From Candidatus Parcubacteria bacterium (lineage in GTDB: Bacteria > Patescibacteriota > Patescibacteriia > UBA1558 > GWA2-36-10): DNA of 64,000 nt. The notes under the pieces are model-generated. The model was not told where the DNA came from. It searched no databases and worked only from the letters and a program-made list of their open reading frames with translations. Within the stretch, counting starts at the first letter, position 1. The number at the start of each line of letters is the position of its first letter. A program made the position numbers and the translations under genes. This document shows, piece after piece, positions 37,689 to 54,568 of the stretch. The stretch is from contig JABJNO010000017.1 of the NCBI GenBank assembly GCA_018664825.1, forward strand, positions 163,011 through 227,010, in the 5' to 3' direction.

Positions 37689-38486
37689 ATGCTGAGAATA
37701 GCAGGTTTTGCCAGACTAAATGGCATTACTTTTATTGGTCCCAAATACCAAGTCACTGCCACCCACACAGGAAAAGGCATCATAATAAAACAAAAAAGAG
37801 TGCCAAAACTCTTTTCATTTGCTGCCTGGCCAAAAAAAGTTCCCTTACTGCGAGGTATGTGGACTTTTATTGAAATGCTTGCCCATATGGTAATCAGTGG
37901 CAGTAAAAAAGCCAAAACAGCATTTGCTGCCTTGTTTTTACTTGGAGCTTATGTAGAATTTTGGCCAAAAGCCGAAAAAATCCCTGTCCCAAAATCATCT
38001 ACACTGATTACTGAAAATATTTTGATTTTAGGCAACTTACTAATGATGGTAGTCTTGATCTGGGCCCTACAAGGTCTATTTAGATATCACGCCGCCGAAC
38101 ATATGGCAATCAATGCCTACTTGTCTGGTAAAAATCTAAACCTTGAAAACATAAGGGAATCAAGTCGAATCAGTTCACGTTGTGGTACAAATCTGGTTGT
38201 AATCTTATATTTAATTCAAATAATTTTAATAGGATTTCTACATCTACATTTTTTTGTCTACCTCGACGTACTGTTTACGTTTGCAATTGCCTATGAGATT
38301 TTTAGGTTACAACTCAAGCCATTTATCTGGCTAGGTACTCTGGCACAAAAACACATTGTCACCAGAAAACCCGAAAATTACCACTTGATTATTGGTGGTA
38401 TGGGATTGGAAAGTCTGATTTCTCTAGAAGAAACCGGAGAGTTTCCTAAGCAATACACAATGAAAGAACATCTTTCTTCCGACTAA
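37689..38486 (+). CDS. DUF1385 (YqhQ-like) membrane-associated protein.
   Basis: RYHAAEHMAINAY signature. Terminator 38495..38525. Confidence 0.65.
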   Translation: MLRIAGFARLNGITFIGPKYQVTATHTGKGIIIKQKRVPKLFSFAAWPKKVPLLRGMWTFIEMLAHMVISGSKKAKTAFAALFLLGAYVEFWPKAEKIPVPKSSTLITENILILGNLLMMVVLIWALQGLFRYHAAEHMAINAYLSGKNLNLENIRESSRISSRCGTNLVVILYLIQIILIGFLHLHFFVYLDVLFTFAIAYEIFRLQLKPFIWLGTLAQKHIVTRKPENYHLIIGGMGLESLISLEETGEFPKQYTMKEHLSSD

Positions 38487-38598
38487 CTACAACGCCAAGC
38501 TCAGCTTGGCGTTTTTATTTATCTACAAGTACACTATTCCTCGCTTGACAGACTTTGTGAGTATGTTAGTATGTGTATATAAGACACTAACTAAGTAT

Positions 38599-39282
38599 AT
38601 GAAAGATTCAAAGATAAAAAAAGAACACGCCAAGCAAAATATCAAGCTTGCTGTTGATAATTGCATCTTTACCATCAAGGATGGTAAGTTGTGTGTTTTG
38701 CTGATAAAAATGAAAGATAAGCTCCAAGGACACTGGGCTTTACCAGGTGGCTTGGTCAACAATAACGAGACCTTGGATTCTGCAGCCAAAAGAATCCTGA
38801 AGACCCAAACTAGCGTCAGTGATGTTTATTTAGAACAACTATATACTTTTGGTGATGTCAAAAGAGATCCTTTTGCCAGAGTCATATCTACCGCCTATTT
38901 TGCTCTAGTTCCACCAAAAACCAACAATATCAAAACTTCTGCAAAATATAGCGATGTTCGGTGGATTCCAGTCAAAAAACTACCTGGATTGGCTTATGAT
39001 CATGATAAAATAGCTAAATATGCCAAACAAAGATTAGCCGATAAAATAAGCTATACCAACGCCGTATGGTCTCTTTTACCTACAAAATTTACCCTAACAG
39101 ACCTACAAAAAGTATACGAAATTATCCTTGGAAAAGTCATAGATAAACGTAATTTCCGTAAGAAAATCCTTGCTTTAGACATTATCCACCCTACTTCTGA
39201 GACCAAAATAAAAGGTGCTCATAGACCTGCTAAATTATATGAATTTAGCTCAACTAAGCCAAAAATAGTGGAAATTGTCTAA
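38599..39282 (+). CDS. nrtR: NrtR-like regulator: degenerate Nudix domain plus C-terminal winged-helix DNA-binding domain.
   Basis: Nudix box present but catalytic residues replaced (GGLVNNNETLDSAAKRILKTQTSV; the REuxEE residues are replaced by RILKTQ). ~90-aa C-terminal extension. Sits directly upstream of the pncB/prs/nadE operon. Own promoter TTGACA-16-TAGTAT at 38545..38572. Confidence 0.6.
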   Translation: MKDSKIKKEHAKQNIKLAVDNCIFTIKDGKLCVLLIKMKDKLQGHWALPGGLVNNNETLDSAAKRILKTQTSVSDVYLEQLYTFGDVKRDPFARVISTAYFALVPPKTNNIKTSAKYSDVRWIPVKKLPGLAYDHDKIAKYAKQRLADKISYTNAVWSLLPTKFTLTDLQKVYEIILGKVIDKRNFRKKILALDIIHPTSETKIKGAHRPAKLYEFSSTKPKIVEIV

Positions 39283-39318
39283 CATTAGCCAAATTCTTTG
39301 ATTTTTTTTGATCTTAAT

Positions 39319-39355
39319 TAGTGTAAAATATACACTAATGTAAAATATACACGTA
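39319..39355. promoter_or_regulatory. Candidate operator: 19-bp palindrome TAGTGTA-N5-TACACTA followed by a second half-repeat ATGTAAAATATACACGTA, abutting the -35 TTGACA (39359..39364) of the NAD/TerY-P operon promoter (-10 TAAAAT 39382..39387).
   Basis: Seen directly. Perfect 7-bp arms. Position overlaps the promoter of the downstream operon. Confidence 0.45.
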
Positions 39356-39536
39356 CTATTGACAAAAATACGAAAATATGATAAAAATAGCGGTTTCATA
39401 TGTAATAAAAACAATGTATTACTCCCCTATTTTGACCTAACTAGTGGAGCTCATTTTTGGGCTATATCAGTGAGGCCAAAAGTCCTAGTTCATTAACAAT
39501 TGGTTTTGGTAAAAAAACAAAACGAAAGGAGAAAAT

Positions 39537-40397
39537 GTGAAACTTTCAGACGTATTCGAAATCGCTTCTGGCACTATCACAGGCTTTGATCATGTGATCT
39601 CAAGCAAAAACAATCAGGACGGTCTAGCTATCTATGCTGATGATGATCAGCTAATAGCCGCTGTCTGTGATGGTTGTAGTGGTAGTAAAAAAGCGGAAGT
39701 CGGCTCAAACATTGCCGCGCGGTTGATTGTAAATCTACTGCGTGACAACCATTCTCTCTATTACGAGGATGCGCGTGCCTTGGAAAGGCTAAAGGATGAT
39801 TTCCTTATTGGTCTTTGCAATGTCGCGAAAGAGTTGGACACCAACTATCGTCAAGTTTTGATTGAGTACTTCCAATTCACTACCGTAGTGATGGTGCTCA
39901 ATCGTATCCAAAATAAGCTCTGGATTTTTTCTATTGGAGATGGTGCTATTGCTGTCAACGGAGAATTCGTTGACCTTGGTCCTTTCCCTGATAATGCGCC
40001 TCCCTATGTTGTCTACAATATGTTGGACACTAGCTTGGCTCAAGACAATCCCGAACTTTTGGATTTTCGGCTCAACTATGAGCTAGAACTAGACGAACTC
40101 CAGTCAGCAATGATTGGAAGTGACGGAGTTATTGACCTTGTCAATATTTCCGAACACAAGATGCCAGGAAAACAAACCTTAGTCGGTCCTCTGTCTCAAT
40201 TTTGGGAAAACGATTTGTTTTTCCGCAATCGAGATGCCTTGAGACGCAAACTGGTCTTGACCAGTCGTGAGTCTATCAAGCTGGATCGTAGCACTACCCC
40301 CTTTGGACTCCGTAAAGAACCTGGACTTTTGCCCGATGACACAACTATGTTTATCATCCGTCGCAAAAAGCCAAGCGAGGAAGGTGAAGTAACATGA
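39537..40397 (+). CDS. PP2C-family Ser/Thr protein phosphatase (GTG start).
   Basis: AAVCDGCSGS (PP2C motif DGxGG-like), conserved Asp positions, C-terminal LPDDTTMFIIR (DDxT motif). SD AAGGAG 5 nt upstream of GTG. Confidence 0.7.
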   Translation: MKLSDVFEIASGTITGFDHVISSKNNQDGLAIYADDDQLIAAVCDGCSGSKKAEVGSNIAARLIVNLLRDNHSLYYEDARALERLKDDFLIGLCNVAKELDTNYRQVLIEYFQFTTVVMVLNRIQNKLWIFSIGDGAIAVNGEFVDLGPFPDNAPPYVVYNMLDTSLAQDNPELLDFRLNYELELDELQSAMIGSDGVIDLVNISEHKMPGKQTLVGPLSQFWENDLFFRNRDALRRKLVLTSRESIKLDRSTTPFGLRKEPGLLPDDTTMFIIRRKKPSEEGEVT

Positions 40398-42262
40398 ACG
40401 TCTATCTAGGCGGAAAGCTTCTTCGCCTAAATCCAACCAAGTCAATTGGTAAAGGTGGTGAAGCTGATGTCTTCAACGTTGGTCAAGGATTGGCGGCTAA
40501 AATTTTTAAAGCCCCTAATCATCCTGACTATACTGGTCAAGCACACGAACAAAAAGCAGCCCAAGCTCGTCTGCTAGAACATCAGACAAAGCTCCGAGAA
40601 TTTCCTCAAAACTTACCTCCCAGAGTAATCACACCTAGAGGCTTGATTACCAACAAACCGGGAACTAAAATTTTGGGTTATGCTATGGAGCTAAAGCTAG
40701 GTGCTGAAGTATTGCTTCGCTACGGCGAACGCAGTTTCCGACAAGGTGGAGTTGGCAATGACTTGATAGTTGATATTTTCAGTGACTTGCATGAGACTGT
40801 CCTTGGTACACACAAAGCAAACGTTGTCTTCGGTGACTTTAATGATTTGAATATTTTGGTCATCAACAACCAAGCTTTTGTAATCGATGCTGACAGCGCT
40901 CAATTTGGCAAGTATCTCTGCAAAATGTTTACCGCCAAGTTTGCTGACCCCCTACTCTGTGATCCCAAGGCAACTTCGCTTGCGCTCAAAAAACCTCACA
41001 ACTCCAACTCTGACTGGTATTCCTTTGCTATCATGTTGATGCAATCCCTGCTCTTTGTCGGTCCTTATGGCGGTGTCTATCGCCCCAAAGACAAAAGCAA
41101 ACGCATGACGCATGATGCTAGGCCGTTGCACCGAGTGACTGTGTTTGACCCAGAGGTCAAATACCCTCGGCCAGCTACACCATTTGGTGTATTACCTGAC
41201 GATCTCTTGCAAGAATTTCATCGTATTTTTGTAGAAGATAAACGCGGAATCTTTCCGTTGCAACTTCTCCAAGAATTACACTGGACTACTTGTAGTGCCT
41301 GTGGTGCCGAACATGCTCGTGGTACATGCCCCGAATGTTCTCAAGTTGCCCCAAGCGCAATCAAAGAGACTGTCATGATCCGTGGCACAGTGACATCTAC
41401 CAGGGTTTTCAAAACTGCTGGTGTGATTATCTATGCTGCTGTTCAAAATGCTAAGCTCCATTGGCTCTGCCATGAAAACGGTGCTTACTTCAGAGAAGGA
41501 AATCGTAAGGTTATTCCTGGAAATCTCGATCCCCAGATGCGTTTCCGCATTCAGGGAAAAAATACGTTGATAAGCAAGACCGGACAATTGATAAAGATGC
41601 TCCCCGATGGGTCAACGTCCAAAGAACGAGTTGATAGCTTTGGCATCCTGCCAATCTTTGACTCAAATTCTAGTCACTCATACTGGCTCCAAGGCGGACA
41701 ATTGATGCGAGACGGACAATTTGGTCCCAAACGCATTGGTGATGTTTTGGAAGGACAGACGCTCTTCTGGACTGGAGATGAATTTGGCTTTGGTTTTTAC
41801 CGAGCTGGAAATCTCTGTGTAGCCTTTAGCTTTGATGCAAAAAAACCAGGTATCAATGACTCGATCAAATTACCTCCTATCAGAGGTCAGATGATTGATT
41901 CTACCTGTACATTTTCCAAAGAACGAGCTTGGTTTTTGATTGCTACCCGCCAAGGCGGAAAAACAATCAACCAATGTATCATCATCAACCGCAACGGAAC
42001 TATCGAAGCCGAAGCTGAAGCCGAAGAAGGCGACGGTAGCTGGCTCTCTAGCATCCGAGGCAAATGTGCAGCCGGCAAATTTTTGCTGGTCGCTACCGAT
42101 GATGGCATTGTCCGAGTGGAAGAAAATGGCGGCCAACTGTCGGTCACCAAAAAATTCCCTGACACTGAGCCCTTTGTACATTCTGGCTGCAAGCTATTTT
42201 CTAGCCAGGATGGTCTATGTGTTATCGATCAAAAAGAAATCCGCATCCTGAAAATAAAGTAA
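40394..42262 (+). CDS. Eukaryotic-like Ser/Thr protein kinase with a central zinc ribbon and a ~330-aa C-terminal beta-rich domain.
   Basis: GKGGEADVF (Gly loop), AAKIFK (VAIK-like Lys), FGDFNDLNILV (catalytic loop D..N), IDADSAQFG (DFG-like), CSACGAEHARGTCPEC. Start overlaps the PP2C stop (ATGA). Confidence 0.7.
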   Translation: MNVYLGGKLLRLNPTKSIGKGGEADVFNVGQGLAAKIFKAPNHPDYTGQAHEQKAAQARLLEHQTKLREFPQNLPPRVITPRGLITNKPGTKILGYAMELKLGAEVLLRYGERSFRQGGVGNDLIVDIFSDLHETVLGTHKANVVFGDFNDLNILVINNQAFVIDADSAQFGKYLCKMFTAKFADPLLCDPKATSLALKKPHNSNSDWYSFAIMLMQSLLFVGPYGGVYRPKDKSKRMTHDARPLHRVTVFDPEVKYPRPATPFGVLPDDLLQEFHRIFVEDKRGIFPLQLLQELHWTTCSACGAEHARGTCPECSQVAPSAIKETVMIRGTVTSTRVFKTAGVIIYAAVQNAKLHWLCHENGAYFREGNRKVIPGNLDPQMRFRIQGKNTLISKTGQLIKMLPDGSTSKERVDSFGILPIFDSNSSHSYWLQGGQLMRDGQFGPKRIGDVLEGQTLFWTGDEFGFGFYRAGNLCVAFSFDAKKPGINDSIKLPPIRGQMIDSTCTFSKERAWFLIATRQGGKTINQCIIINRNGTIEAEAEAEEGDGSWLSSIRGKCAAGKFLLVATDDGIVRVEENGGQLSVTKKFPDTEPFVHSGCKLFSSQDGLCVIDQKEIRILKIK

Positions 42263-42290
42263 TCAAAAGGAGGCCTTTTCCGTTAAGACT

Positions 42291-43373
42291 TTGTCTTTCA
42301 CCGTCAAACCTTTTCACTTTTCCGGAGGAAAAATCATGAATAAGATTCTACCCATTCCCCCTCATTTCAATCCGTCCCAGGCTAGCGAAGCCTATCGCAA
42401 TCCCTACCAAGAGCTGTTTGTAGCCGCTCAAAAGTGGGCTCGTGATCACGGATTGACCTCAGCTGGCGCTGACAAAAAGAGGGTCTGTTTGATGCCGATC
42501 GATACCCAAAACACCTTTTGCCTGCCCGACTTCGAGCTCTTTGTAGCTGGTGCGAGTGGCAATGGTGCTGTCGATGACAATATCCGTCTGTGTGAGTTTA
42601 TCTATCGCAACCTCGGTACTATTACCGAGATCTGTCCGACTATGGACACGCACAAGCTCATGCAAATCTTTCACCAGATGTTTTGGGTGAATGAAAACGG
42701 AGAACATCCCGAACCGATGACTATCATCAGTTTGGATGATGTCAAGACTGGTGTCTGGAAGGTCAATCCCAAGATCGCCGTAAGTGTTGCCAATGGCAAC
42801 TACGCTGGTCTCCAACGTCATGCTTTGCACTACGTCACTGAGCTTACCAATGCTGGCAAGTATCCACTCATCATCTGGCCCTTCCACGCCATGCTGGGTG
42901 GAATCGGTCATGCTTTGGCGAGTGTGATAGAAGCAGCTTGCTTCTTCCACGCTACCGCTCGCGGTATGGATACTGGCTTCGAGATCAAGGGAGGCAATCC
43001 GCTTTCTGAGAACTACTCTGTTCTTCGTCCGGAAGTACTCACCACTGATGGTGGCAATCCTATCGGACAAAAGAATACGACTTTCATCGAAAAGCTGTTG
43101 TCGTCCGACGTGCTGATCATTGCAGGACAAGCCAAAAGCCATTGTCTGGCCTGGACTATTCAGGATCTCTTGGATGAGATTTTGGCCCAGGATCCCAGTC
43201 TGGCGAAAAAGGTTTACATCCTGTTGGACTGCACTTCTCCTGTCGTCATTCCTGGTGTGATTGATTTCACTCCTCAGGCCGACGAAGCCTTCCAGCGCTT
43301 TGCTGATGCTGGTATGCATATCGTCAACTCGACCGACCCGATCACTGATTGGCCCGACATCGACTTGGGCTAA
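42291..43373 (+). CDS. Isochorismatase-family hydrolase (nicotinamidase PncA-like), unusually long at 360 aa.
   Basis: LMPIDTQNTFC (catalytic Asp motif) and AGQAKSHCLAWTIQD (catalytic Cys motif). Confidence 0.65.
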   Translation: MSFTVKPFHFSGGKIMNKILPIPPHFNPSQASEAYRNPYQELFVAAQKWARDHGLTSAGADKKRVCLMPIDTQNTFCLPDFELFVAGASGNGAVDDNIRLCEFIYRNLGTITEICPTMDTHKLMQIFHQMFWVNENGEHPEPMTIISLDDVKTGVWKVNPKIAVSVANGNYAGLQRHALHYVTELTNAGKYPLIIWPFHAMLGGIGHALASVIEAACFFHATARGMDTGFEIKGGNPLSENYSVLRPEVLTTDGGNPIGQKNTTFIEKLLSSDVLIIAGQAKSHCLAWTIQDLLDEILAQDPSLAKKVYILLDCTSPVVIPGVIDFTPQADEAFQRFADAGMHIVNSTDPITDWPDIDLG

Positions 43374-43438
43374 GTGTTTCATTTTCTTTATTGATCAATC
43401 GATCAATATAAACTTTTCTTAAAACAAGGAGGAGCAAA

Positions 43439-44227
43439 ATGAGCTCACCCAACGTTAGTGATCTTTTCCAGACTGCTGCTGAAGAAGGCGAATTGTCTGC
43501 TGGTACCATGCAAGTTTTGCAGGTAGCCGACATTGGCGCCAAAATTCAGGGAGCCCTGGGAATTGGTGTCGATCAGTTTGAATCCAGCGAAACTACGCTA
43601 GTCACTCTGATGCCGGACGATTCTGGTAGCATCCGTTTTGCAAACAACACTCAGTTGATGCGAGATGGTCACAACTTGGTACTCGACTCTTTGTCGGACA
43701 CCAAGCAAGCCGACAACATCCTGGCTATGACCCGTTATCTCAATGGAGAAGTTCTCTTTCCTTACGGTCCACTGGCATCTGCCGTCCGTATGGATCAGGG
43801 CAACTACAATCCCAATCAGGGTACTCCGCTCTATGATGAGTCGGTAGTCTTGCTCGGCGCTGTCCTGGCCAAAGCTCAGGAATTTGCCGATGCTGGAATC
43901 ATGGCTCGGACAATCACCCTACTCATCTCCGACGGAGCTGATCAGCATTCTCGACACCACGGTGCGGCTGACGTCGCAAAATTGGTTGCCGACATGCTGA
44001 GTCAAGAACGCCATATCATCGCTGCCATGGGTATCGATGATGGTCACGGTACTGATTTCCACCAGATTTTTGCTGCTATGGGTATTCCCGCCGAGTGGAT
44101 TCTCACTCCGGGTACCGATGCTAGTGAAATCCGAGCGGCTTTCAATACTTTCTCCAAGTCGGCTGTTCGTGCTAGCCAAGGTGCTGGTAGTTTTTCCCAG
44201 ACTGCAATGGGAGGCTTCGGCGCTTAA
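43439..44227 (+). CDS. vWA-domain protein (TerY-like).
   Basis: MIDAS motif LMPDDSGSI (DxSxS) with downstream Thr and Asp positions. Size ~260 aa, typical of TerY. Terminator 44246..44285. Confidence 0.65.
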   Translation: MSSPNVSDLFQTAAEEGELSAGTMQVLQVADIGAKIQGALGIGVDQFESSETTLVTLMPDDSGSIRFANNTQLMRDGHNLVLDSLSDTKQADNILAMTRYLNGEVLFPYGPLASAVRMDQGNYNPNQGTPLYDESVVLLGAVLAKAQEFADAGIMARTITLLISDGADQHSRHHGAADVAKLVADMLSQERHIIAAMGIDDGHGTDFHQIFAAMGIPAEWILTPGTDASEIRAAFNTFSKSAVRASQGAGSFSQTAMGGFGA

Positions 44228-44398
44228 CCAAAACCAACAACGGTGGAGTGTGTACCAAAAGGTGCACACTCCACTACTCTATTTTTAGAAAAGTGTTACC
44301 AAATACTTTGGTGATAATTTTCTTACCTTAAATATTTTGAGGTAATGTGTTCGTTTACAAATGTTCAACAATCAACCACCACTCAAAAGGAGAAAAAG

Positions 44399-44995
44399 AT
44401 GTTTGATCATGGAATGCCCAGTAAAATAGTTTGGAATGGTTTCTACAAAGTAGAGCTAATCGAAATCCCTGGAGCTCCTCATCCCCTCGAAATCATCCAT
44501 GCTACTGACTCTGTCAGCGTCCTATTTTACAACCTTGCCGAGCGTTATGCCCTGCTGGTCCGCCAGCCCCGTATCGCTATGGCAACTGATAAAAATCCCG
44601 AAGGCATGATCACCGAAACAGTTGCTGGTCGCTTTGACCTCAAAATCGGTGCTCGTGGCCTGATCGTCAAGGAAGCTCTCGAAGAAGCTGGTGTCGAAAT
44701 CACCGAAGGCCAAATCGAAATGCTCAACAACGGTCAGCCTATGGCTCTCACCGCTGGATGTAGCACTGAAAAAGCCTATCTGGCTATCTGTGAAATCAAT
44801 GCAACTATGATCGAGGCTCAGGAAAGAGTCTTTGGCGTCAAAGACGAAGGCGAAGAGATCGAAAGAATCTTTATCCCCTTTGCTGATCTGGAAGAATACG
44901 TCTGTGAAGACCTGCGTGTCTTTACTCTCATCCAGTACCTACTCAGCAAGCTGACGACCAAGGCTATCACCAGGCTCATCGACGATGTCGTATAA
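44399..44995 (+). CDS. Nudix-fold hydrolase (ADP-ribose pyrophosphatase-like).
   Basis: ETVAGRFD...KEALEEAGVEI matches the REuxEExGu half of the Nudix box. SD AAAGGAG upstream of ATG at 44399. Confidence 0.5.
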   Translation: MFDHGMPSKIVWNGFYKVELIEIPGAPHPLEIIHATDSVSVLFYNLAERYALLVRQPRIAMATDKNPEGMITETVAGRFDLKIGARGLIVKEALEEAGVEITEGQIEMLNNGQPMALTAGCSTEKAYLAICEINATMIEAQERVFGVKDEGEEIERIFIPFADLEEYVCEDLRVFTLIQYLLSKLTTKAITRLIDDVV

Positions 44996-45029
44996 ACTTT
45001 CCAAACCCCTTAACACAAGGAGAATTCAC

Positions 45030-46280
45030 ATGGACAGACCAATCATCAAATCCCTGATGGACTTGGATTTTTACAAGCTCACCATGGGACAGTTGATATT
45101 TCTCATGTACGCTCACATTCCAGTGACTTTCAGTTTTATCAATCGTAGCATTGACGTGCAACTTCCAAAGCATATCAATGTCGATGAACTGCGCGAACAA
45201 CTGGAGCATGCTCGTACTCTGCGTATCAACCCCGATGAACTTGGCTGGCTGGTCAGTAGCACAAGTATTTCTGGAAAACGAATCTTACAAGATCCGTATC
45301 TGAAATTCCTGTCTACTCTGCGCTTGCCAGAGTTCAACCTCGAAGTTGATGATGATAGAAGATTGCACCTGCAATTTTATGGCCCCTGGTCAACAGTCGT
45401 TTACTGGGAGACCATTGCCCTCTCAATCATCAATGAGATGTGGTGTCAGAGCCAGATGAAGGATATGAGTCGCTTCGAACGCGACTTGATTTTGACCGAA
45501 GGCAAGATGCGTCTAGGAAAAAAGATAGCACTTCTCAATCAACCTCAATGTGAAGGCCTGACTTTTTCTGACTTCGGTACCCGTCGTCGTTTTTCTGGCG
45601 ATTGGCAGTCGTATGTAGTTGACGCTATGGCCAATGAGCTGACCCAAGCAAAATTCAGGGGAACTTCAAATGTTCGCCTGGCTATGGATCACCATCTCCG
45701 ACCAATCGGTACTTCGGCTCACGAATTACCGATGATCATGAGCGGTATTATGCACAAAAACGATGACTCTATCCGAGCTTCCAACCAGCAGGTTTTGACC
45801 GACTGGTGGAATCTTTACGGACATGAGCTGTCTATTTTCTTGCCTGATACCTATGGTACCAAGTTTTTCTTTGACAACCTGACTCATGAACAGGTAGTCA
45901 ATTGGAGAGGCTTCCGCCATGACAGTGGTGATGCTATCGAGTTTGGCGAAAAGGTCATTTCCTTTTATCAGTCTCATGACGTCGATCCTCGTGAAAAGAT
46001 AGTTGTTTTCAGTGATGGACTTGATATTGAAAAAATTATCAAGTTCTATGGTCATTTCAAGGGTCGCATCGACACCGATAATGGTTGGGGTACTACTCTG
46101 ACCAATGACATGGGATTACGTACCTTGTCTCTGGTAGTCAAAGCTACCGAGGCCTGTGGTCATGGCTTGGTCAAATTGTCTGACAATCTGGCCAAAGCTA
46201 CTGGTAACCCCACTGATGTTGAACGCTTCAAAAAGATCTTTGGTCACACCGTGACCACTCGTACTGAGTGTAAGGTCTAA
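45030..46280 (+). CDS. pncB: Nicotinate phosphoribosyltransferase (NAPRTase family).
   Basis: N-terminal LMDLDFYKLTMGQ and SDFGTRRRFS motifs. SD AAGGAG upstream of ATG at 45030. Confidence 0.75.
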   Translation: MDRPIIKSLMDLDFYKLTMGQLIFLMYAHIPVTFSFINRSIDVQLPKHINVDELREQLEHARTLRINPDELGWLVSSTSISGKRILQDPYLKFLSTLRLPEFNLEVDDDRRLHLQFYGPWSTVVYWETIALSIINEMWCQSQMKDMSRFERDLILTEGKMRLGKKIALLNQPQCEGLTFSDFGTRRRFSGDWQSYVVDAMANELTQAKFRGTSNVRLAMDHHLRPIGTSAHELPMIMSGIMHKNDDSIRASNQQVLTDWWNLYGHELSIFLPDTYGTKFFFDNLTHEQVVNWRGFRHDSGDAIEFGEKVISFYQSHDVDPREKIVVFSDGLDIEKIIKFYGHFKGRIDTDNGWGTTLTNDMGLRTLSLVVKATEACGHGLVKLSDNLAKATGNPTDVERFKKIFGHTVTTRTECKV

Positions 46281-46401
46281 CACCTGTGGTGGGTAGAACA
46301 AAACTCTACCCACCACTCTTTTCTCAAGTCACCAAAACTTTGGTGATTTAAAAAAGGAAAATGTTCATTTACAATCAAGGTTTAAAACAAAGGAGAAGGC
46401 G

Positions 46402-47373
46402 ATGATTAAGTACCTACTTGCCTATCGTGAGATGGGTGAACTAGCCAAAGCTCTTGGCGAGTCAATGGCAACTCAAGACTCTACAACCCTAGTACCCAAA
46501 CACATCGAATGGAATAGGTTTGAAAACAACTACCCCAACCTCTTTATACCCAAGGTAGAAGAGATCGATGGCAGTGATGTAGTTTTTCTGGCCAATTTGG
46601 AAAAACCGGAAACTATTTTTGAACAACTAGCCATCATCCATGCTCTGCCTCGTTATGGTGTCCGCTCCCTGACTATCGTCCTACCATATTTCCCTACAGG
46701 AACTATGGAAAGAGTCGACAACGAAGGTCAGGTTGCTACTGCCATGACTCTGGCTCGGCTACTTTCAGCTACACCCTTGACTATGAATGGTCCTGCTCGG
46801 ATTGTCATCTTTGACATCCATGCCTTACCTGAACGCTTTTATTTTGGTGACGCAGTGATACCTCAATTGGTATCGGCTATCCCTTTGCTAAAAAGCCGAC
46901 TGGTAAAATTTGCCGAGGAAACCGATGATCCTCTTGCTATCTGTTTTCCGGACGAAGGCGCCAGAAAAAGATTTGGCAACATGTTCCCTGGTTACCCGCA
47001 GATTATTTGTGACAAAATTCGCGATGGCAATTCTAGAAATGTAGTCATAAAAGAAGGCGATCCTCGTGGTTACCACGTAGTGATTGTCGATGATCTGGTA
47101 ATTAGTGGTGGCACTACCAATGAGTGCAAAAAAGTACTCTTTGCCAATGGAGCCGCTGCTGTAAGTGCTTATGTCACTCATCCTGCATTTCCTCAAAAAA
47201 GTTGGAAACGCTTCATCGAGCGTGATCCTGAAGGATTGAATTTCTCAAACTTCTGGATTACAGACTCTTGTCCAAATACGGTCAGTGAGATCTTTTCTTA
47301 CAACAAGCATCAGGGCCATGGTCCTTTTGAAGTTTTGTCTCTGGTAGACCCTCTACTGGAAATGCTTAGTTGA
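46402..47373 (+). CDS. prs: Ribose-phosphate pyrophosphokinase-like PRTase-fold enzyme. Atypical.
   Basis: PRPP/ribose-5-P binding loop VVIVDDLVISGGT and overall Prs architecture. The canonical catalytic flexible loop (PYxGYARQDR) is replaced by PYFPTGTMERVDNEGQ. Confidence 0.65.
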   Translation: MIKYLLAYREMGELAKALGESMATQDSTTLVPKHIEWNRFENNYPNLFIPKVEEIDGSDVVFLANLEKPETIFEQLAIIHALPRYGVRSLTIVLPYFPTGTMERVDNEGQVATAMTLARLLSATPLTMNGPARIVIFDIHALPERFYFGDAVIPQLVSAIPLLKSRLVKFAEETDDPLAICFPDEGARKRFGNMFPGYPQIICDKIRDGNSRNVVIKEGDPRGYHVVIVDDLVISGGTTNECKKVLFANGAAAVSAYVTHPAFPQKSWKRFIERDPEGLNFSNFWITDSCPNTVSEIFSYNKHQGHGPFEVLSLVDPLLEMLS

Positions 47374-47433
47374 TTTGATCTCATCAAACCATCTCTTGTC
47401 TAAAACAAGAATACTCAAACGAGGAGATAAACA

Positions 47434-48396
47434 ATGAAAAAACCTGGAATCTTGGAAAAAGATCAGTGCGAGGCTATTATTGGCCTAGCAGCAAGCTCAC
47501 TCTATGAATACTGTGAACATCATGGTATTCACTATGTAGTCACTGGATCTTCCGGTGGTTTGGATAGTGCTGTCACTCTAGCCTTGGCTCAACGAGCCTG
47601 CAAGATGGCCGCTGAGAATGACTTTGATCTCACCTCTGTGGGTTTGATCATGCCTTGTCATTCTGACGAGTCTGCCGAACGCCTCGGCAAGATGGTCATC
47701 GAAAAATTTGGTGCCGAACAGATCACTATTGATCTAACATCAAACTTTGACTATGCCACCAATCTAATTGATGGCACCAATAGCCAAATCACGCATATTC
47801 TCAGAACTACCGGCGGTGTTGATGCTATTGATCAGCTAGATTGGTCCAAGAATATTGCCCAAGGCAATATCAAAGCTCGTATGCGAATGATGTTTGGTAC
47901 TTACCACGTCGCTCGCATGATGAATGGGATGGTCCTATCTACTGACAACCTGTCTGAGTTTTGGATGGCCTTTTGGACTATCTGTGGTGATGTCGGCGAC
48001 TACGGCATGATCCAGAGCCTCCTCAAAGGTCTCGAACTTTACGACTTGGCTGATTGCCTGGGTGTACCCAAGGAAATCATCAACTCCAAACCCGATGATG
48101 GATTAAACGTCGGTAACGGTGATGAAGATCAACTGGGTGCTTCTTATCCAGTACTCGATCTAGTAATGATCGAGCTTATCCATCAGGGATTTGATCCCGA
48201 TGGCAGCCTCGACCAACTCATGACCCTACCTTCTGTCGAAGGTGTTGACCAAGACGTGGTCGTGAAATTGGCCAAACGTTGTTTGCGAGGTAGCTTCAAA
48301 CGACATGGTCCAATCGTACTTTCACGTGCTGAGCTTGGCTTAGCTGCAATTAAAAACCTTGACCTTGATATGATTCAAAATCATTTCAGGGACTAA
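47434..48396 (+). CDS. nadE: NH3-dependent NAD+ synthetase.
   Basis: PP-loop VTGSSGGLDSAV (SGGxDS). ~320 aa is typical for NadE. Confidence 0.8.
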   Translation: MKKPGILEKDQCEAIIGLAASSLYEYCEHHGIHYVVTGSSGGLDSAVTLALAQRACKMAAENDFDLTSVGLIMPCHSDESAERLGKMVIEKFGAEQITIDLTSNFDYATNLIDGTNSQITHILRTTGGVDAIDQLDWSKNIAQGNIKARMRMMFGTYHVARMMNGMVLSTDNLSEFWMAFWTICGDVGDYGMIQSLLKGLELYDLADCLGVPKEIINSKPDDGLNVGNGDEDQLGASYPVLDLVMIELIHQGFDPDGSLDQLMTLPSVEGVDQDVVVKLAKRCLRGSFKRHGPIVLSRAELGLAAIKNLDLDMIQNHFRD

Positions 48397-48403
48397 CACA
48401 AAA

Positions 48404-48440
48404 CCCCCGTCGATTTTTTCGACGGGGGTCTTTATTTTAT
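48404..48440 (+). terminator. Terminator CCCCCGTCGATTTTTTCGACGGGGG followed by TCTTTATTTTAT (copy 1).
   Basis: Identical 39-nt copy at 49335..49373. Confidence 0.7.
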
Positions 48441-48464
48441 ATAAAAGATAAATTTTACTAATTC

Positions 48465-48493
48465 TTGACATTTTCTGTATTTTATGCTATAAT
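48465..48493 (+). promoter_or_regulatory. Consensus promoter TTGACA-17-TGcTATAAT driving 48556..49305.
   Basis: Exact hexamers with extended -10. Confidence 0.6.
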
Positions 48494-48555
48494 AATAAAT
48501 TAGTAAAAATCACTAGTTTTACCGACGGTTCATTAACACAAAAAAGGAGAAAACA

Positions 48556-49305
48556 ATGAAATTTTCAAAAACCAGTCTGCGCACCCTTCTGGTTGTATTT
48601 GTTGCAATCATTGCAGCGCTCACCCTTAACAATCTCACAAACAATCTGATCACCGATTATTCATCAGATGAATTCGCATCTGATGACAACTACAACAACA
48701 CCTCCGAGCTGTACTCTGATGAAGTGCCTGCTGAATCAAGTAAAAACACCAACAACTCATTCCCCATTCCCCCGACCCCCATCATCATTTTATTGAGTAT
48801 GTCACTTGTTACAATCGTTGGCATGATATTTGTTTGGACTAGAAATTTCATTAGGGTTCCGCCTGATTGCGTGATGGTAATCTTTGGATCCAAATCCAAG
48901 GGTGGTAAACCATATCGCGTTGTCAAGGGTGGTGGCGGTGCATTTGTTGCGCCGGTAATCCATTCCTACAAGTTGATCTACATGGGATCACAGAAGCTTG
49001 AGATCGACTTCAATGCCCTGTCTGCAGATTCTGAAAATCTCACAATCTTCTTGACTGCTCATTGCTCGCCCCTTACTTCTACCGAGGGCTTTGAGTCCTA
49101 CCTTGAACGTGGCATATACGAAAACTCCTCAATAGTGGAACAAACTATTGAGTCGTGCCTTAGGAGGCATATCGGTGAGTTCGAAGCCACAGATCTCAAG
49201 TCCAGTCCCCAAAAAACGTTATCAGAAGTCATTGATCTTATACGACCCGACCTAGAAGAGTTGGGCATGATGATCAATACCCTGATAATCACTGAAGTGA
49301 TGTAA
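48556..49305 (+). CDS. SPFH/flotillin-like N-terminal domain protein with TM anchor (short, 249 aa).
   Basis: FIRVPPDCVMVIFGSKSKGGKPYRVVKGGGGAFVAPVIHSYKLIYMGSQKLEIDF resembles the flotillin SPFH N-terminus. SD AAAGGAG. Flanked by identical terminators. Confidence 0.5.
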   Translation: MKFSKTSLRTLLVVFVAIIAALTLNNLTNNLITDYSSDEFASDDNYNNTSELYSDEVPAESSKNTNNSFPIPPTPIIILLSMSLVTIVGMIFVWTRNFIRVPPDCVMVIFGSKSKGGKPYRVVKGGGGAFVAPVIHSYKLIYMGSQKLEIDFNALSADSENLTIFLTAHCSPLTSTEGFESYLERGIYENSSIVEQTIESCLRRHIGEFEATDLKSSPQKTLSEVIDLIRPDLEELGMMINTLIITEVM

Positions 49306-49336
49306 GTCACCCTCTAATTCTCCTCTTTCGAGTAAA

Positions 49337-49373
49337 CCCCCGTCGATTTTTTCGACGGGGGTCTTTATTTTAT
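49337..49373. terminator. Terminator copy 2 (identical to 48404..48440), between convergent genes.
   Basis: Identical hairpin and tail. Confidence 0.7.
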
Positions 49374-49381
49374 AAAAATTA

Positions 49382-51142
49382 TTAAGCAATAAACCCACCT
49401 ACCTGTTTTTCCCATAACCTTTTATAGAGGCCTCCTGATTTCTTGATAAGCACTTGGTGGGTACCCTGTTCTACTATATTTCCTTTATCCAAAACTAAGA
49501 TTCTATCCATCTTCATGATAGTAGATAATCTATGAGCGACCACTATTACTGTTTTATCTTTCATAAGATTGGCTAAAGCATCTTGAATCATCTCTTCTGA
49601 TTCAGAATCCAAAGAGGATGTTGCTTCATCCAATATCAAAATTGGAGAATTTTTAAGTATAGACCGGGCAATAGCTACACGCTGACGTTCTCCTCCAGAA
49701 AGTTTTACTCCTCTTTCTCCAACATAGGTCTGATAAGCTTCGGGAAAATCATTTATAAATTTATCAGCATGTGCTAATTTGGCAGCTTTTTTAATTTCTA
49801 AATCTGTAGCCCTTGGCTGACCATAGCGAATATTTTCTTTGAGAGTCCTGTGAAACAATATTGGATCTTGATTGACCAAGGATATATTTTTCCACAAAGA
49901 ATCTTGAGTAACACCAATTATTCTTTGATCATCTATCAAAATCTTACCCCCATCAATATCATAATTTCTGAGTAATAAATTTATCAAAGTAGATTTTCCA
50001 GAGCCAGATGGTCCAATTAGGGCTATTTTTTCCTTGGCTTTAATATTTAAATTAAAATTAGAGATAATCTTACGAGTCTTATTATAAGCAAAAGATACTT
50101 TCTTAAATTCTATTTGCCCTCCTTTTACTTTTAATACCTTGGCAGTTTTTACATCTTGAATTTCATGAGGCTGCTCTAATATTTCAGTCATTTCTTCTGC
50201 TTCGGCCATAGCTTCATAATATTTTCTAATAATACGACCAAAATTCCATAATCTCATCATAATAGTAATCAAATAAGTTTGAATCAAAACAAATTCACCC
50301 ACACTTATAATACCTTTTTGCCATAATGAAATAGCATAATACATAATACCAATCTCCAAAACCATCATAAGTAAAGTCTGAGCAGCTTCAAAATAATTAG
50401 CTAAATTCCAAGTGAATTGCCTCAATTTTTGTAATTGACCAGTTGCTGTTTTAAAATGCTTTCTCTCTCTGCTGTAGCCGGTAAATAATTTTAAATTTAA
50501 ATGGTTGGTAATAGTGTCAGCTAAAACTCCGGTGACTTTAGAATTTAATCCTGCTCTTTGCACATCGTATTTTAATTTGTACAAAGAAAAATAATAATTA
50601 ACTAGCATATAAATTATTATCCATATCAGTATTCCTAAACCTAGCCATATGTTTCGCTTACCTAAAAATATAATAATCAAAAATAAGTTTACGAAAATTG
50701 GTAAAAAATCCCAAAAAATTAAATCTGTCACCACTTCAAAAGATCTAGAAAATCTATTTACTTTTTTGACTAGTGATCCTACAAAATTATTATTGAAAAA
50801 AGAAATAGAATGCTTGTGCATATATGCAAAAGATGAGTTGGATATACTAGCCATAGCATTGGTCTGAAAGTATGCTGTCAAAAATGTAGCTGCTCTCCAA
50901 AAAATCCAAGAACTCAAATAAACGGCCAATACTTTCATCAAGGTAATTTTGAGCATTGGAATCTTATCAAGAGTATTATCTGAACTAGTTAGGATATCAA
51001 AAAAGTCTTTATAATATAACGGTCCAATGACATGACCAAGCGAAGCAATGGTTATAGAAACGATTATAAACCAAGGAGCCCATCTATATTGTACTAGATG
51101 TTTCCAAAAAATTTTAAATGTTTGTTTTGTTAAATACTGCAT
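49382..51142 (-). CDS. ABC exporter, fused permease and ATPase (MsbA-like).
   Basis: Six TM helices, then Walker A GPSGSGKST, signature LSGGERQRVAIAR, Walker B ILILDEATS. -10 TATAAT lies only ~9 nt before the ATG, so the transcript may be leaderless. Confidence 0.85.
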   Translation of the reverse strand: MQYLTKQTFKIFWKHLVQYRWAPWFIIVSITIASLGHVIGPLYYKDFFDILTSSDNTLDKIPMLKITLMKVLAVYLSSWIFWRAATFLTAYFQTNAMASISNSSFAYMHKHSISFFNNNFVGSLVKKVNRFSRSFEVVTDLIFWDFLPIFVNLFLIIIFLGKRNIWLGLGILIWIIIYMLVNYYFSLYKLKYDVQRAGLNSKVTGVLADTITNHLNLKLFTGYSRERKHFKTATGQLQKLRQFTWNLANYFEAAQTLLMMVLEIGIMYYAISLWQKGIISVGEFVLIQTYLITIMMRLWNFGRIIRKYYEAMAEAEEMTEILEQPHEIQDVKTAKVLKVKGGQIEFKKVSFAYNKTRKIISNFNLNIKAKEKIALIGPSGSGKSTLINLLLRNYDIDGGKILIDDQRIIGVTQDSLWKNISLVNQDPILFHRTLKENIRYGQPRATDLEIKKAAKLAHADKFINDFPEAYQTYVGERGVKLSGGERQRVAIARSILKNSPILILDEATSSLDSESEEMIQDALANLMKDKTVIVVAHRLSTIMKMDRILVLDKGNIVEQGTHQVLIKKSGGLYKRLWEKQVGGFIA

Positions 51143-51914: not shown

Positions 51915-53639
51915 TTAGTTGGTTATTGGCTCAGCAGCCTTCTGGTGAGCACGAGCACGTCTACGCAACTTTTCACCTTCAGTGATCTGAGCGACCTGCA
52001 TCTGGAGAAAATCTCCGATAAAGGTCTTTGTCACTGCTTCGTGGTCAGTCGGTAGACCAAACTCAGTCAAGGCCAAGATAGCCACTGTCTCTTGATAGCG
52101 AATCAGATAAGCATCTTTTACTTCACACCTGAACCACAACTTGTGACTACAGTTGAAAGTCAAAATGCCATTTTCGCGATCAAAAGTATATGCTTCACTG
52201 GAGCGAGGCATATAATCAAAGGCGAATTGCAGACCACTGCTACTACCTTTGACAGTCTTTCGCCTCTGACCCTTTGGACCTTGGACCGTGATAGGAGTGT
52301 GACCCTGCATCTCATCGGGTCGGACTCTATCCTTGCCCTTGGCACCAGACCCCTTGCCCGTGTCTTTGAGCTTGGGAGCTGACATCGCAGGATTATCCTG
52401 CGTAGCCTTGGGAGGCAAATCAGCATGACCTTTTCCGGTCGTGCCAAAAGCAAAATTCTCGATCAGGTCTTTGAGACCTCTTTGCTCAAGAATACCCTCG
52501 ACTACCGAAATAGCTACCAAACCAAGTCGCTGAAAGCGAGCCTCTTTGGAGCTATTTTGGATCTCACCCATGATCTCCTTGCCAACTTTGTTCCACCACT
52601 CTTCGATGCACATACACATGTCAACGAAGTTGTCGCTGTCCACAAACCGCTTACGGTCAGGATGGAGCTTGACGCGAGTAGCGGTGATTTCACCCTCAAA
52701 TATTCCTGATCTGAGAGCATCTATCGCTTCTTCGGGGAGGCCCAAAGATTTGACCTTGTCCCAAAAAGTCTTGGTAGTAAAACGAAATTCATCGTTTCGT
52801 TCACCAAAAAGTACCTTACCTCTCCGATCTTTCTTCTTGCCCTGCTTGGGGGCAATAAAAAGATCAAAGTAAGTAACTACTTTACTATCAGCTACCTCGA
52901 AAATCACCGGTTCGATAGGCTGGCCCTCAAAGCCAGATGCCTCAACCTTGTATGCCCTTTTGGCATTGGATTCATCGATATAATCAATATCAACGACCAC
53001 GCCACGCTTGTGCATGACTGTGCCAAAACGCTCCAAAATAGCGCCGTTGAGTTGATGAGGAGTCAGACGGGTAAGCTCCCTATCCTTGGTGATTTTCATC
53101 ACTCTCACCTGAGTACGCCAATCGACATAAATAGGCGTCCTGCCGCGAGCAGACCTCTTTTTGGAAGTCTCACGTCCAGGAGCATAGGTGTGCCACTTGA
53201 GCGGTGTCATGGGAATACCTTCCCCAACTACCAAGCCCTTGACCTCATCCGAGATAAACTTCCACTCGACATATGCATTGACGCCGTTTGCCTTTGCGCA
53301 AGACGTAAAGGTAAACATGTCACACTTATCGAGCGGAGAAATCAATCCCCGACCGAAACGACCAAGTTTTCCACTTGTCTTCATGGTCTGAAAAATCTGA
53401 CCAAGAGCCTGCTCAAACTTGTCCTTGGTGACACCTTCGCCGTCATCCATTACTTCGAGAGTCCGTTTTGAAAGATTCAGTTTGACTCGGATATTTTTGG
53501 CATTGGCATCTAGTCCATTTTGGATAATCTCCAAAATGAAATCCTGAAGATAAGGATAACACTGAGCGGCTGCCAAAAGCGCTCCTCCTAAATGTACACC
53601 AAGCTTACTTTCTCCAGCAGTCGCACGTCGAGCGTTCAT
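51915..53639 (-). CDS. GHKL-superfamily ATPase (MORC/MutL/HSP90-like Bergerat fold) with a Gly/Lys-rich linker and unknown C-terminal domain.
   Basis: Motif I ILEIIQNGLDANAKNIRV (ExxxNxxDA), motif II VMDDGEGV (DxGxG), G-rich motif III GKLGRFGRG. GC ~48%. Terminator 51880..51907. Start overlaps the upstream gene stop (ATGA). Confidence 0.65.
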   Translation of the reverse strand: MNARRATAGESKLGVHLGGALLAAAQCYPYLQDFILEIIQNGLDANAKNIRVKLNLSKRTLEVMDDGEGVTKDKFEQALGQIFQTMKTSGKLGRFGRGLISPLDKCDMFTFTSCAKANGVNAYVEWKFISDEVKGLVVGEGIPMTPLKWHTYAPGRETSKKRSARGRTPIYVDWRTQVRVMKITKDRELTRLTPHQLNGAILERFGTVMHKRGVVVDIDYIDESNAKRAYKVEASGFEGQPIEPVIFEVADSKVVTYFDLFIAPKQGKKKDRRGKVLFGERNDEFRFTTKTFWDKVKSLGLPEEAIDALRSGIFEGEITATRVKLHPDRKRFVDSDNFVDMCMCIEEWWNKVGKEIMGEIQNSSKEARFQRLGLVAISVVEGILEQRGLKDLIENFAFGTTGKGHADLPPKATQDNPAMSAPKLKDTGKGSGAKGKDRVRPDEMQGHTPITVQGPKGQRRKTVKGSSSGLQFAFDYMPRSSEAYTFDRENGILTFNCSHKLWFRCEVKDAYLIRYQETVAILALTEFGLPTDHEAVTKTFIGDFLQMQVAQITEGEKLRRRARAHQKAAEPITN

Positions 53640-54373: not shown

Positions 54374-54568
54374 CTCTTCTCCTTCCAAGGGTGTGAGGTG
54401 TTGACTATCTATTGTTTCTTGAAAAGCTATAACCAACTTATCAAAGAACCCTTATATATGAACGTAATTGTCCATAATACAACAATATAAAATAACATTT
54501 TTAGTAAAATCTGTCAACATTTAAAAAACTCCCAAAAAAGGGAGTTTTTTATAAATTACTGAGCAAAT

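Follow-up and report, generated by a model that had tools for sequence, protein, structure and literature searches.

We analyzed a 64,000-nucleotide (64-kb) stretch of the genome of a Candidatus Parcubacteria bacterium (assembly GCA_018664825.1, contig JABJNO010000017.1, positions 163,011 to 227,010), which we call the window; coordinates are positions within it unless another locus is named. Nine open reading frames on the + strand (38599-48396; g1 to g9) are predicted to encode an NrtR-type regulator, a PP2C-family phosphatase, a eukaryotic-like protein kinase, a nicotinamidase-like hydrolase, a vWA protein, a Nudix hydrolase, nicotinate phosphoribosyltransferase (PncB), a phosphoribosyl pyrophosphate (PRPP) synthase, and NAD synthetase (NadE). 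A first-pass annotation of the sequence had listed nine same-strand genes, and we found 9/9 where it placed them; its domain assignments were all borne out by Pfam and NCBIfam models, motif alignments, profile comparison, and fold prediction. In the source metagenome-assembled genome, the deposited protein names are "hypothetical protein", "isochorismatase", and "ribose-phosphate pyrophosphokinase-like".

The genes g2 to g5 form the core of the locus. The first of them, g2 (39537-40397), encodes a PP2C-family Ser/Thr phosphatase, which matches PP2C_2 (PF13672; E = 3.5e-15) with 56.6 bits (cutoff 24) and has readable DG, DGCSG, GDG, SDG, and DDTT motifs. It overlaps the kinase gene g3 (40394-42262; 622 amino acids) by an ATGA, as had been noted. 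The g3 protein combines a eukaryotic-like kinase with a CxxC...CPxC zinc ribbon and a C-terminal domain of ~300 amino acids, for which sequence searches gave no match. Its similarity to Pfam Pkinase is sub-threshold (E = 0.0027; 17.6 bits, with a cutoff of 31.7). However, in an alignment of 18 homologs, the glycine loop (GKGGEA), the Lys, GDFNDLN (a catalytic-loop variant), IDADS (metal-binding), and SDWYAF (subdomain-IX-like) are invariant or nearly so, as are the four cysteines of the zinc ribbon (C300, C303, C312, and C315). When compared to the PDB, a profile of the g3 family matched protein kinases only; these matches are weak, with the catalytic loop, the DFG region, and subdomain IX in register. 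So, of the hidden Markov model (HMM) significance that had been expected for the signalling proteins, the phosphatase lies above its cutoff and the kinase does not, although its motifs and its PDB profile matches are those of a kinase.

The last core gene, g5 (43439-44227; 262 amino acids), encodes a vWA protein with an intact metal ion-dependent adhesion site (MIDAS; DxSxS, T, and D are conserved), which is what a TerY-like protein with a metal-binding MIDAS should have. Residues ~236-262 form a conserved Ser-rich tail (SQSAVRASQ..SFS..GGFG) that has several invariant serines, is modeled with low confidence, and is predicted to be disordered. The tail could be a site of phosphorylation or a docking motif. 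Together, the vWA protein, the phosphatase, and the kinase with a zinc ribbon match the TerY-P architecture, as the first-pass annotation had proposed, as this architecture is summarized in PMC11090510.

Between the kinase and the vWA protein lies g4 (42336-43373; 345 amino acids), which encodes a predicted cysteine hydrolase of the isochorismatase superfamily. Six residues are invariant in its family: D56, D104, H106, H184, K218, and C270. The motifs IDxQNxF, DxH, WPxH, KG...YS, and SHCV align to the catalytic triad and the metal ligands of PncA and Pnc1, with D56, K218, and C270 as the Asp-Lys-Cys triad and D104, H106, and H184 as candidates for the metal site that binds the pyridine nitrogen; WPYH aligns to WPPH or WPVH of PncA/Pnc1, in short alignments. 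Comparing the g4 family to the canonical family with hhalign gave a probability of 96% (E = 1.5e-9), and one member of the canonical family matches Pfam's Isochorismatase model. Fold prediction gave an isochorismatase-like fold, and the only matches of g4 in BFVD were nicotinamidases from giant viruses. Searches of the PDB with g4 or g5, as single sequences or as profiles, gave insignificant or empty results. We consider g4 to be a nicotinamidase-like enzyme, with the deamidation of nicotinamide to nicotinate as its putative reaction.

Several variants of g4 occur at other loci. The long nicotinamidase-like gene has two paralogous copies in L029 (11854-12984 and 13967-15007) and in L072 (11936-12997 and 14059-15111). 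Some nicotinamidase-like proteins carry an N-terminal domain of ~230 amino acids with no match in Pfam (L010:11914-13656, L036, and L057), and this domain is a stand-alone gene in L026 (14738-15427), L074, L086, and L094, which include contigs from IMG/VR. In the window, a 307-amino-acid open reading frame runs antisense to g4 (42459-43382, - strand); nothing indicates that it is a gene, and it is a shadow frame of the GC-rich g4.

The regulator g1 (38599-39282; 227 amino acids, a length that agrees with its homologs) matches NrtR_WHD (PF21906; E = 1.2e-26, 93 bits) and NUDIX (PF00293; E = 3.3e-13, 50 bits). It also matches NF050029 (E = 1.1e-47), with 162 bits, which is under the equivalog cutoff of 400. 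Its Nudix box is degenerate, with RILKTQTSV where REUxEExGU is expected, and the catalytic glutamates are lost. By its sequence, g1 is an NrtR-family repressor: a Nudix-related protein with a winged helix that is predicted to respond to ADP-ribose. Proteins of the NrtR family lose their DNA binding in vitro when ADP-ribose is present (Rodionov et al. 2008; PMC2330246).

The gaps between the nine genes had been given as 0-120 nt, but the gap between nrtR and the phosphatase gene is 254 nt, and it contains an operator and a promoter-like site. The operator is a perfect 21-bp NrtR-type palindrome, TTAGTGTAAAATATACACTAA, at 39318-39338, with zero mismatches and the GT-N7-AC core of the NrtR regulon; a degenerate second copy overlaps it and extends to 39356. 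Directly 3' of the operators is the promoter-like site for the core (TTGACA-18-AAAAAT; 39359-39388, + strand), which agrees with the consensus at 10/12 positions. A second promoter-like site, TTGACA-16-TAGTAT, lies before nrtR itself (38545-38572, + strand; again 10/12 positions, a consensus match only). Its -10 region is overlapped by a degenerate operator with an ATGTGTATATAAGACACTA core (38570-38590), which has 2 mismatches to TAGTGT-N7-ACACTA. Across the whole window, there are three matches to this pattern with at most 2 mismatches, which is not above chance, so we call the site at 38570-38590 a putative operator because of its position directly 5' of the ATG at 38599. This arrangement suggests that nrtR is autoregulated. 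A search of 38000-49600, which includes the 254-nt leader, gave no credible Rfam match to a riboswitch or to any other structured RNA.

To see how far this arrangement is conserved, we scanned one genome per species and obtained 420 confirmed loci. We examined the neighbors of the kinase in 84 loci, used a stricter sample of 45 fully flanked loci, and searched for operators in 67 loci. Upstream of the PP2C gene, the operator pattern is a 21-bp NrtR-type palindrome, TTAGTGTA-N5-TACACTAA (consensus WTAGTGTW-N5-WACACTAW). It lies within 450 nt of the PP2C gene in 56/67 loci (84%), at a median position of -87, and its density there is 2.77/kb, versus 0.039/kb elsewhere, which is a 70-fold enrichment. 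In two IMG/VR contigs with GC contents of 0.58-0.59, the interval between the kinase gene and g4 contains a perfect NrtR-type box (TTAGTGTTATAAGTACACTAA) instead (L087:2571 and L088:12332). Neither box has an NrtR gene nearby, and the two contigs may come from bacteria or carry prophages.

The kinase family has over 1,385 full-length members (~55-69% identity). The best 80 of the 420 loci are from Patescibacteria, Cyanobacteria, Myxococcota, Gammaproteobacteria, Acidobacteriota, Planctomycetota, and other groups. Among the 84 loci, the kinase gene has PP2C as a neighbor in 79, g4 in 75, g5 in 72, and NrtR in 55. PncB (17 loci), Nudix (7), Prs-like (3), and NadE (2) genes are much less common. 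In the well-flanked sample, PP2C, the kinase, g4, and the vWA protein are each present in 44/45 loci and NrtR in 35/45. PncB accompanies the core in 27% of loci. The core order recurs in about 75 of the 84 loci, from many phyla, and is thus far beyond chance. In ~90% of loci, g4 sits between the kinase and the vWA protein.

Almost half of the well-flanked loci (22/45) encode at least one further enzyme of NAD or ADP-ribose metabolism. The recurrent additions are PncB, an NMNAT-NAD kinase fusion, NAD kinase, two types of ADP-ribosylglycohydrolase, Nudix, canonical isochorismatase, NadD, NadE, histidine phosphatase, and an LSDAT/SLOG protein, and they all belong to NAD or ADP-ribose metabolism. 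The census thus identifies the conserved unit as NrtR, PP2C, the kinase, the nicotinamidase-like protein, and the vWA protein, with the salvage genes as additions. The first-pass annotation had described a signalling triad interleaved with a NAD salvage operon. This needs revision, as the isochorismatase-like gene belongs to the four-gene core and the Nudix, PncB, Prs, and NadE genes are the variable part. The link that it drew between the triad and NAD metabolism is no local coincidence, as it is conserved across the loci.

The full nine-gene layout is found only in the window and in close relatives among the Parcubacteria (L005 from the genome scan and the P0001 contig), which amounts to one species-level locus. 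This rarity might suggest that a housekeeping NAD salvage operon and an unrelated signalling triad are side by side by chance. But g4 lies within the triad in nearly all loci, the NrtR operator usually precedes PP2C, and the recurrent neighbors are all NAD or ADP-ribose enzymes. The neighborhood census refutes chance juxtaposition, which we regard as scarcely credible.

A few loci depart from the usual layout. In six cyanobacterial loci, including L001 (9101-9916), a gene for ADP-ribosylglycohydrolase is inserted between PP2C and the kinase, and in Leptolyngbya the locus is interrupted by genes for Uma2-family endonucleases. In two contigs from the Joint Genome Institute (L002, 1.7 Mb, and L003, 228 kb), the core genes are intact, while gene calling breaks the flanks into dozens of very short open reading frames. 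This suggests that the core was recently acquired by a genome that uses an alternative genetic code.

In the window, the boundary between the core and the variable genes is marked by a terminator-like hairpin with a 15-bp stem and a T-rich tail (44242-44275, + strand). The first gene after it, g6 (44345-44995), encodes a Nudix hydrolase of the YffH/AdpP type and might start at an internal ATG near 44399. It matches TIGR00052 (YffH/AdpP; E = 2.9e-11) and NudK (E = 3e-11), both under their cutoffs, and keeps the glutamates of the Nudix box (KEALEEAGV). Next is pncB (g7; 44985-46280), whose product is above the cutoffs of NF003704 (410 bits, cutoff 379) and TIGR01514 (300 bits, cutoff 270); another terminator-like hairpin follows it (46286-46316, + strand). 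After the PRPP synthase gene g8 (46402-47373) comes nadE (g9; 47434-48396), which encodes an NH3-type NAD synthetase (TIGR00552, 116 bits with a cutoff of 63.65; PF02540, E = 9.5e-36). A strong terminator-like hairpin (48403-48429, + strand) closes the block of NAD genes. Given the hairpins after g5, pncB, and nadE, the nine genes may be a core unit followed by downstream units that are transcribed by read-through.

The last hairpin has an identical copy at 49336-49362. The hairpin and its tail are part of a 52-nt direct repeat (48401-48452 and 49334-49385; 92% identical) that brackets a gene of the SPFH/Band-7 family (48556-49305). This gene is missing from the contig of the closest relative, suggesting that it was inserted here and the terminator duplicated in the process.

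The Prs-like protein g8 scores 98 bits against TIGR01251, which has a cutoff of 113. Its regulatory flexible (RF) loop, PYFPTGTMERVD, is of the TGTMER type, with the same motif in its homologs. By manual alignment to human PRPS1, the glutamate of the FLAG region is lost: g8 has RFENNYPN, and its homologs have F-x-D-G-[YFW]-P-N. A 2026 survey (PMC13252144) defined class II PRPP synthases by a TTMER-type RF loop and the absence of the FLAG-region glutamate; class IV has STMER. The class II enzymes are proven PRPP synthases that lack classical allosteric control (PMC13252144), and the class lacks feedback inhibition by ADP. g8 has both features, with the TTMER-type loop replacing the equivalent of R96, and is by these motifs a class II-type PRPP synthase. 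Homologs of g8 with ~50% identity are abundant in metagenomes, where they are stand-alone: among 45 metagenome loci of at least 5 kb, we found no NAD genes near them. Because these homologs have no NAD context, g8 seems to belong to an ordinary class of PRPP synthases. A Prs-like gene at another locus of the module (L072:20605-21579) has STMER in its RF loop, which is class IV type rather than class II, so different non-classical PRPP synthases appear to have been recruited to the module.

The first-pass annotation had taken the unusual loop of g8 as a hint of a non-canonical substrate, with the NAD+ reconstitution pathway 1 (NARP1) of phages as the model. In this scenario, g8 would be an Adps-like ADP-ribose pyrophosphokinase, and PncB would join ADP-ribose pyrophosphate to nicotinate to form nicotinate adenine dinucleotide (NaAD), which would bypass NadD. 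The canonical ARQDR loop is indeed missing from g8, an ADP-ribose-type Nudix gene is close by, and there is no NadD in the window. However, the loop is the signature of PRPP-forming class II enzymes, and the pyrophosphate (PP) loop of g8 is DDLVISGGT, unlike the remodeled DDICDxAAS loop of Adps. g8 also retains the C-terminal ITDSCP...VLSL region (Adps lacks the alpha11-alpha12 module), and it is just 24-30% identical to phage Prs and Adps proteins. Adps genes are beside Namat in 97% of cases; the phosphoribosyltransferase next to g8 is PncB-type, above the NF003704 cutoff, with no Namat- or Nampt-type partner, and the homologs of g8 stand alone. Also, in L036 and L072, Prs-like genes co-occur with NMNAT or NadD. 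As the first-pass annotation itself had said that the idea would fall if g8 proved to be an ordinary PRPP synthetase, we reject a route like NARP1 here and consider it very improbable.

The composition of the locus differs from most of the window. GC content at third codon positions (GC3) is 0.40-0.57 for the island genes, versus 0.22-0.33 for most other long open reading frames in the window, a few of which reach 0.40-0.48. The raised GC3 extends from PP2C to the SPFH gene (39537-49305). The other GC3-rich open reading frames are at 2049-3512, 13755-14615, 31043-31924, 51915-54436, and 59442-60533.

The core is also found in contigs that are labeled as viral. In IMG/VR, 14 contigs, mostly of 200-545 kb, contain PP2C, the kinase, g4, and the vWA protein. 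None of these (0/14) has NrtR or an operator upstream of PP2C, and 5 have PncB and 3 have NadE. The genes that flank the core include those for homing endonucleases, RtcB, Archease, RlaP, T4 RNA ligase, Thg1, Prim-Pol, DenV, and NADAR, a gene content that is typical of huge phages, so we refer to them as predicted phages. This status rests on the IMG/VR label and on 10-kb flanks, and there were no capsid or terminase genes in the examined parts of the contigs. Among phages deposited in GenBank, we did not find the module, just two distant matches to the kinase domain only. Nor did we find it in deposited plasmids, as tblastn with g5 as the query gave no similarity to plasmid-borne proteins.

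These contigs raise the possibility that the module is a counter-defense of huge phages or other mobile elements, which would rebuild NAD+ by the deamidated route, and that the bacterial copies were domesticated under NrtR. The absence of NrtR and its operator, the occasional PncB and NadE, and the phage-type flanking genes fit this proposal, and Preiss-Handler clusters have been described in jumbo phages. But the viral assignment has the basis described above, deposited phages gave no more than those kinase-domain matches, and cellular loci outnumber viral ones by 420 to 14. The proposal also leaves the need for a kinase, a phosphatase, and a vWA protein unexplained. We think that it is quite unlikely.

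A related idea is that the module is an anti-phage defense or conflict system. The triad would sense infection, and the nicotinamidase-like enzyme would be the effector, starving the phage pathways NARP1 and NARP2 of the nicotinamide that both require; it might also relieve the product inhibition of the host's NADases, while the host retains the nicotinate route (PncB and NadE). TerY-P-like triads occur as stand-alone defense systems and beside restriction systems, as PMC11090510 summarizes, and predicted ADP-ribose conflict systems with vWA proteins have NrtR-type regulators at their head. The island-like composition, the ADP-ribosylglycohydrolase genes that are inserted in cyanobacterial versions, and the wide, patchy spread across phyla at 50-70% identity, as if by horizontal gene transfer, are also what one would expect. 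On the other hand, no nuclease, pore-forming protein, or other toxic effector recurs nearby, the recurrent additions build NAD(P)+ rather than depleting it, the sequences are very highly conserved for a system that should evolve as fast as defense genes do, and the core is present in predicted phages.

Searches with PADLOC's HMMs give little comfort to this idea. When we compared g3 to g9 to these models, the kinase, g4, and the vWA protein had no matches; the PP2C protein matched only PDC-M21C (E = 0.0043). We presume that the TerY-P models are included in PADLOC v2.0.0. The first-pass annotation had mentioned the ties of TerY-P to tellurite and phage stress, and these do not carry over: besides the lack of a TerY-P match in PADLOC, there are no tellurite genes among the recurrent neighbors in the 84 loci. 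The recurrent neighbor clusters from these loci also do not include TerD, TerB, TerC, or families for DNA restriction or processing. We consider a defense function to be unlikely.

The explanation that we favor, to which we would give an even chance of being correct, is that the locus is a horizontally acquired, ADP-ribose-inducible island for recycling NAD+, built around the conserved five-gene module. NAD+ would be cleaved to nicotinamide and ADP-ribose by NADases, ADP-ribosyltransferases, or sirtuins, for instance during phage attack or stress. The ADP-ribose would release NrtR from its operators, and the island would be transcribed. g4 would then deamidate nicotinamide to nicotinate. In parallel, the Nudix hydrolase g6 would split ADP-ribose into AMP and ribose-5-phosphate, and the class II PRPP synthase g8 would convert ribose-5-phosphate to PRPP. 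PncB would combine nicotinate and PRPP to form nicotinate mononucleotide (NaMN), which a NadD encoded beyond the window would convert to NaAD, and NadE would complete the synthesis of NAD+. The enzymatic steps rely on the established functions of these families, and the logic of the induction is borrowed from Rodionov et al. 2008, who place Prs downstream of ADP-ribose in NrtR regulons (PMC2330246).

The most speculative step is the role of the triad. We propose that either the vWA protein or the hydrolase is phosphorylated by the kinase and dephosphorylated by PP2C. Binding through the MIDAS would then gate or scaffold the nicotinamidase reaction and restrict the removal of nicotinamide to defined conditions. 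We propose this because of the invariant co-occurrence of these proteins, the MIDAS, and the conserved Ser-rich tail. Phosphorylation-gated salvage of NAD is a reasonable hypothesis.

Several observations weigh against a NAD+ recycling island. First, the hairpins after g5 and pncB suggest that transcription of the nine genes may be divided into two or more units. Second, roughly half of the well-flanked loci have no addition for NAD synthesis, which implies that the core has a function of its own. Third, g4 fails Pfam's Isochorismatase model, and 4/45 well-flanked loci (L002, L010, L072, and L074) have a canonical PncA-like isochorismatase beside g4, which makes it less certain that g4 is simply the nicotinamidase of the pathway. 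Fourth, NadD or NMNAT was not detectable by tblastn in the window, as had been claimed, so the full set of PncA, PncB, NadD, and NadE is not present there; at other loci of the core, NadD or NMNAT is among the additions. Finally, the presence of the core without NrtR in predicted huge phages fits a role in conflict as well as it fits homeostasis.

Because the core is often alone, sometimes accompanied by a canonical PncA-like gene, and found without the repressor on phage-like contigs, we have kept a broader conflict-system interpretation alive, with the module as a host defense against phage NAD+ reconstitution that depends on nicotinamide or as a counter-defense of phages. In this interpretation, NrtR, PP2C, the kinase, the nicotinamidase-like protein, and the vWA protein would be an undescribed and widespread NAD+-conflict module, in which protein phosphorylation directly switches the deamidation of nicotinamide. 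It would be under an ADP-ribose-sensing repressor in bacteria and constitutive in huge phages. It would act either as a fourth NAD+ reconstitution pathway, via the deamidated route, or by denying nicotinamide to the NARP of phages. We put this forward tentatively, as possible rather than probable. We know of no pathway of NAD+ depletion or reconstitution in conflicts between phages and bacteria, among those described, that is not purely enzymatic.

If a phosphorylation switch of this kind does exist, it would be the first eukaryotic-like kinase, phosphatase, and vWA switch to be hard-wired to a NAD salvage enzyme and to NrtR. The module is common (420 species-level genomes and over 1,300 protein clusters) and unusually conserved: copies from Patescibacteria, Cyanobacteria, Myxococcota, and other groups share 50-70% identity. 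It also appears to be mobile, and predicted huge phages carry it too. The module could be a tractable five-gene system for studying how bacteria sense and repair the loss of NAD+. And bacteria of the candidate phyla radiation, with their minimal metabolism, could acquire the capacity to recycle NAD+ as a ready-made island.

The components of the locus are already known: NrtR regulons, TerY-P-like triads, nicotinamidases, class II PRPP synthases, and the Preiss-Handler genes of jumbo phages. We did not find the combination described. In the searchable literature, which for TerY-P means a later summary and for the NrtR regulons the main text of the 2008 study, there was no description of a TerY-P-like set of PP2C, kinase, and vWA proteins with NrtR and a nicotinamidase or isochorismatase.

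The closest relative of the triad is TerY-P (Anantharaman, Iyer and Aravind 2012), as it is summarized in PMC11090510, along with the TerY-P-like defense systems of Gao 2020. Like these, our module has adjacent genes for a vWA protein with a MIDAS, a PP2C phosphatase, and a Ser/Thr kinase with a C-terminal zinc ribbon, and it has a mobile, cross-phylum distribution. Unlike TerY-P in that summary, it usually has a long nicotinamidase-like hydrolase between the kinase and the vWA protein, its kinase has an extra domain after the zinc ribbon, and it is under an NrtR operator; neither ter and tellurite genes nor restriction systems recur nearby.

With the NrtR regulons in the main text of Rodionov et al. 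2008 (PMC2330246), the locus shares the Nudix-winged-helix-turn-helix repressor, the 21-bp palindrome with a GT-N7-AC core, the pncA-type, pncB, prs, and nadE targets, and ADP-ribose as the signal of NAD+ consumption. Those regulons comprise metabolic enzymes and the unnamed nrtX and nrtY, and that main text has no set of kinase, phosphatase, and vWA protein. In our loci, what the operator mainly and most consistently serves is the signalling and nicotinamidase core rather than the salvage enzymes.

As for the class II PRPP synthases, such as PRS3/4 of plants (PMC13252144), g8 has their TTMER-type RF loop and lacks the FLAG-region glutamate; here, its gene has been recruited into an NrtR-controlled NAD island.

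The conflict systems centered on ADP-ribosylglycohydrolase (Iyer et al. 2022, PMC9503650, section 3.8) also have NrtR-like Nudix factors, an occasional vWA "chaperone", and variable additions around a conserved core. However, their core is ADP-ribosylglycohydrolase with rhodanese-type phosphatases and restriction endonuclease effectors. In our loci, ADP-ribosylglycohydrolase is occasional and mostly cyanobacterial, and the core is PP2C, the kinase, the nicotinamidase-like protein, and the vWA protein.

Lastly, NARP1-3 and the Preiss-Handler clusters of jumbo phages rebuild NAD+ from breakdown products or precursors, as we propose for this island. Huge phages carry pncB and nadE, and the core module is present on IMG/VR contigs. 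But the module lacks the Adps and Namat of NARP1, the Nampt and NMNAT of NARP2, and the PnuC and NadR of NARP3. It differs from NARP1-3 and from the jumbo-phage clusters in having a protein-phosphorylation triad, and from NARP1-3 in its predicted use of the deamidated route.

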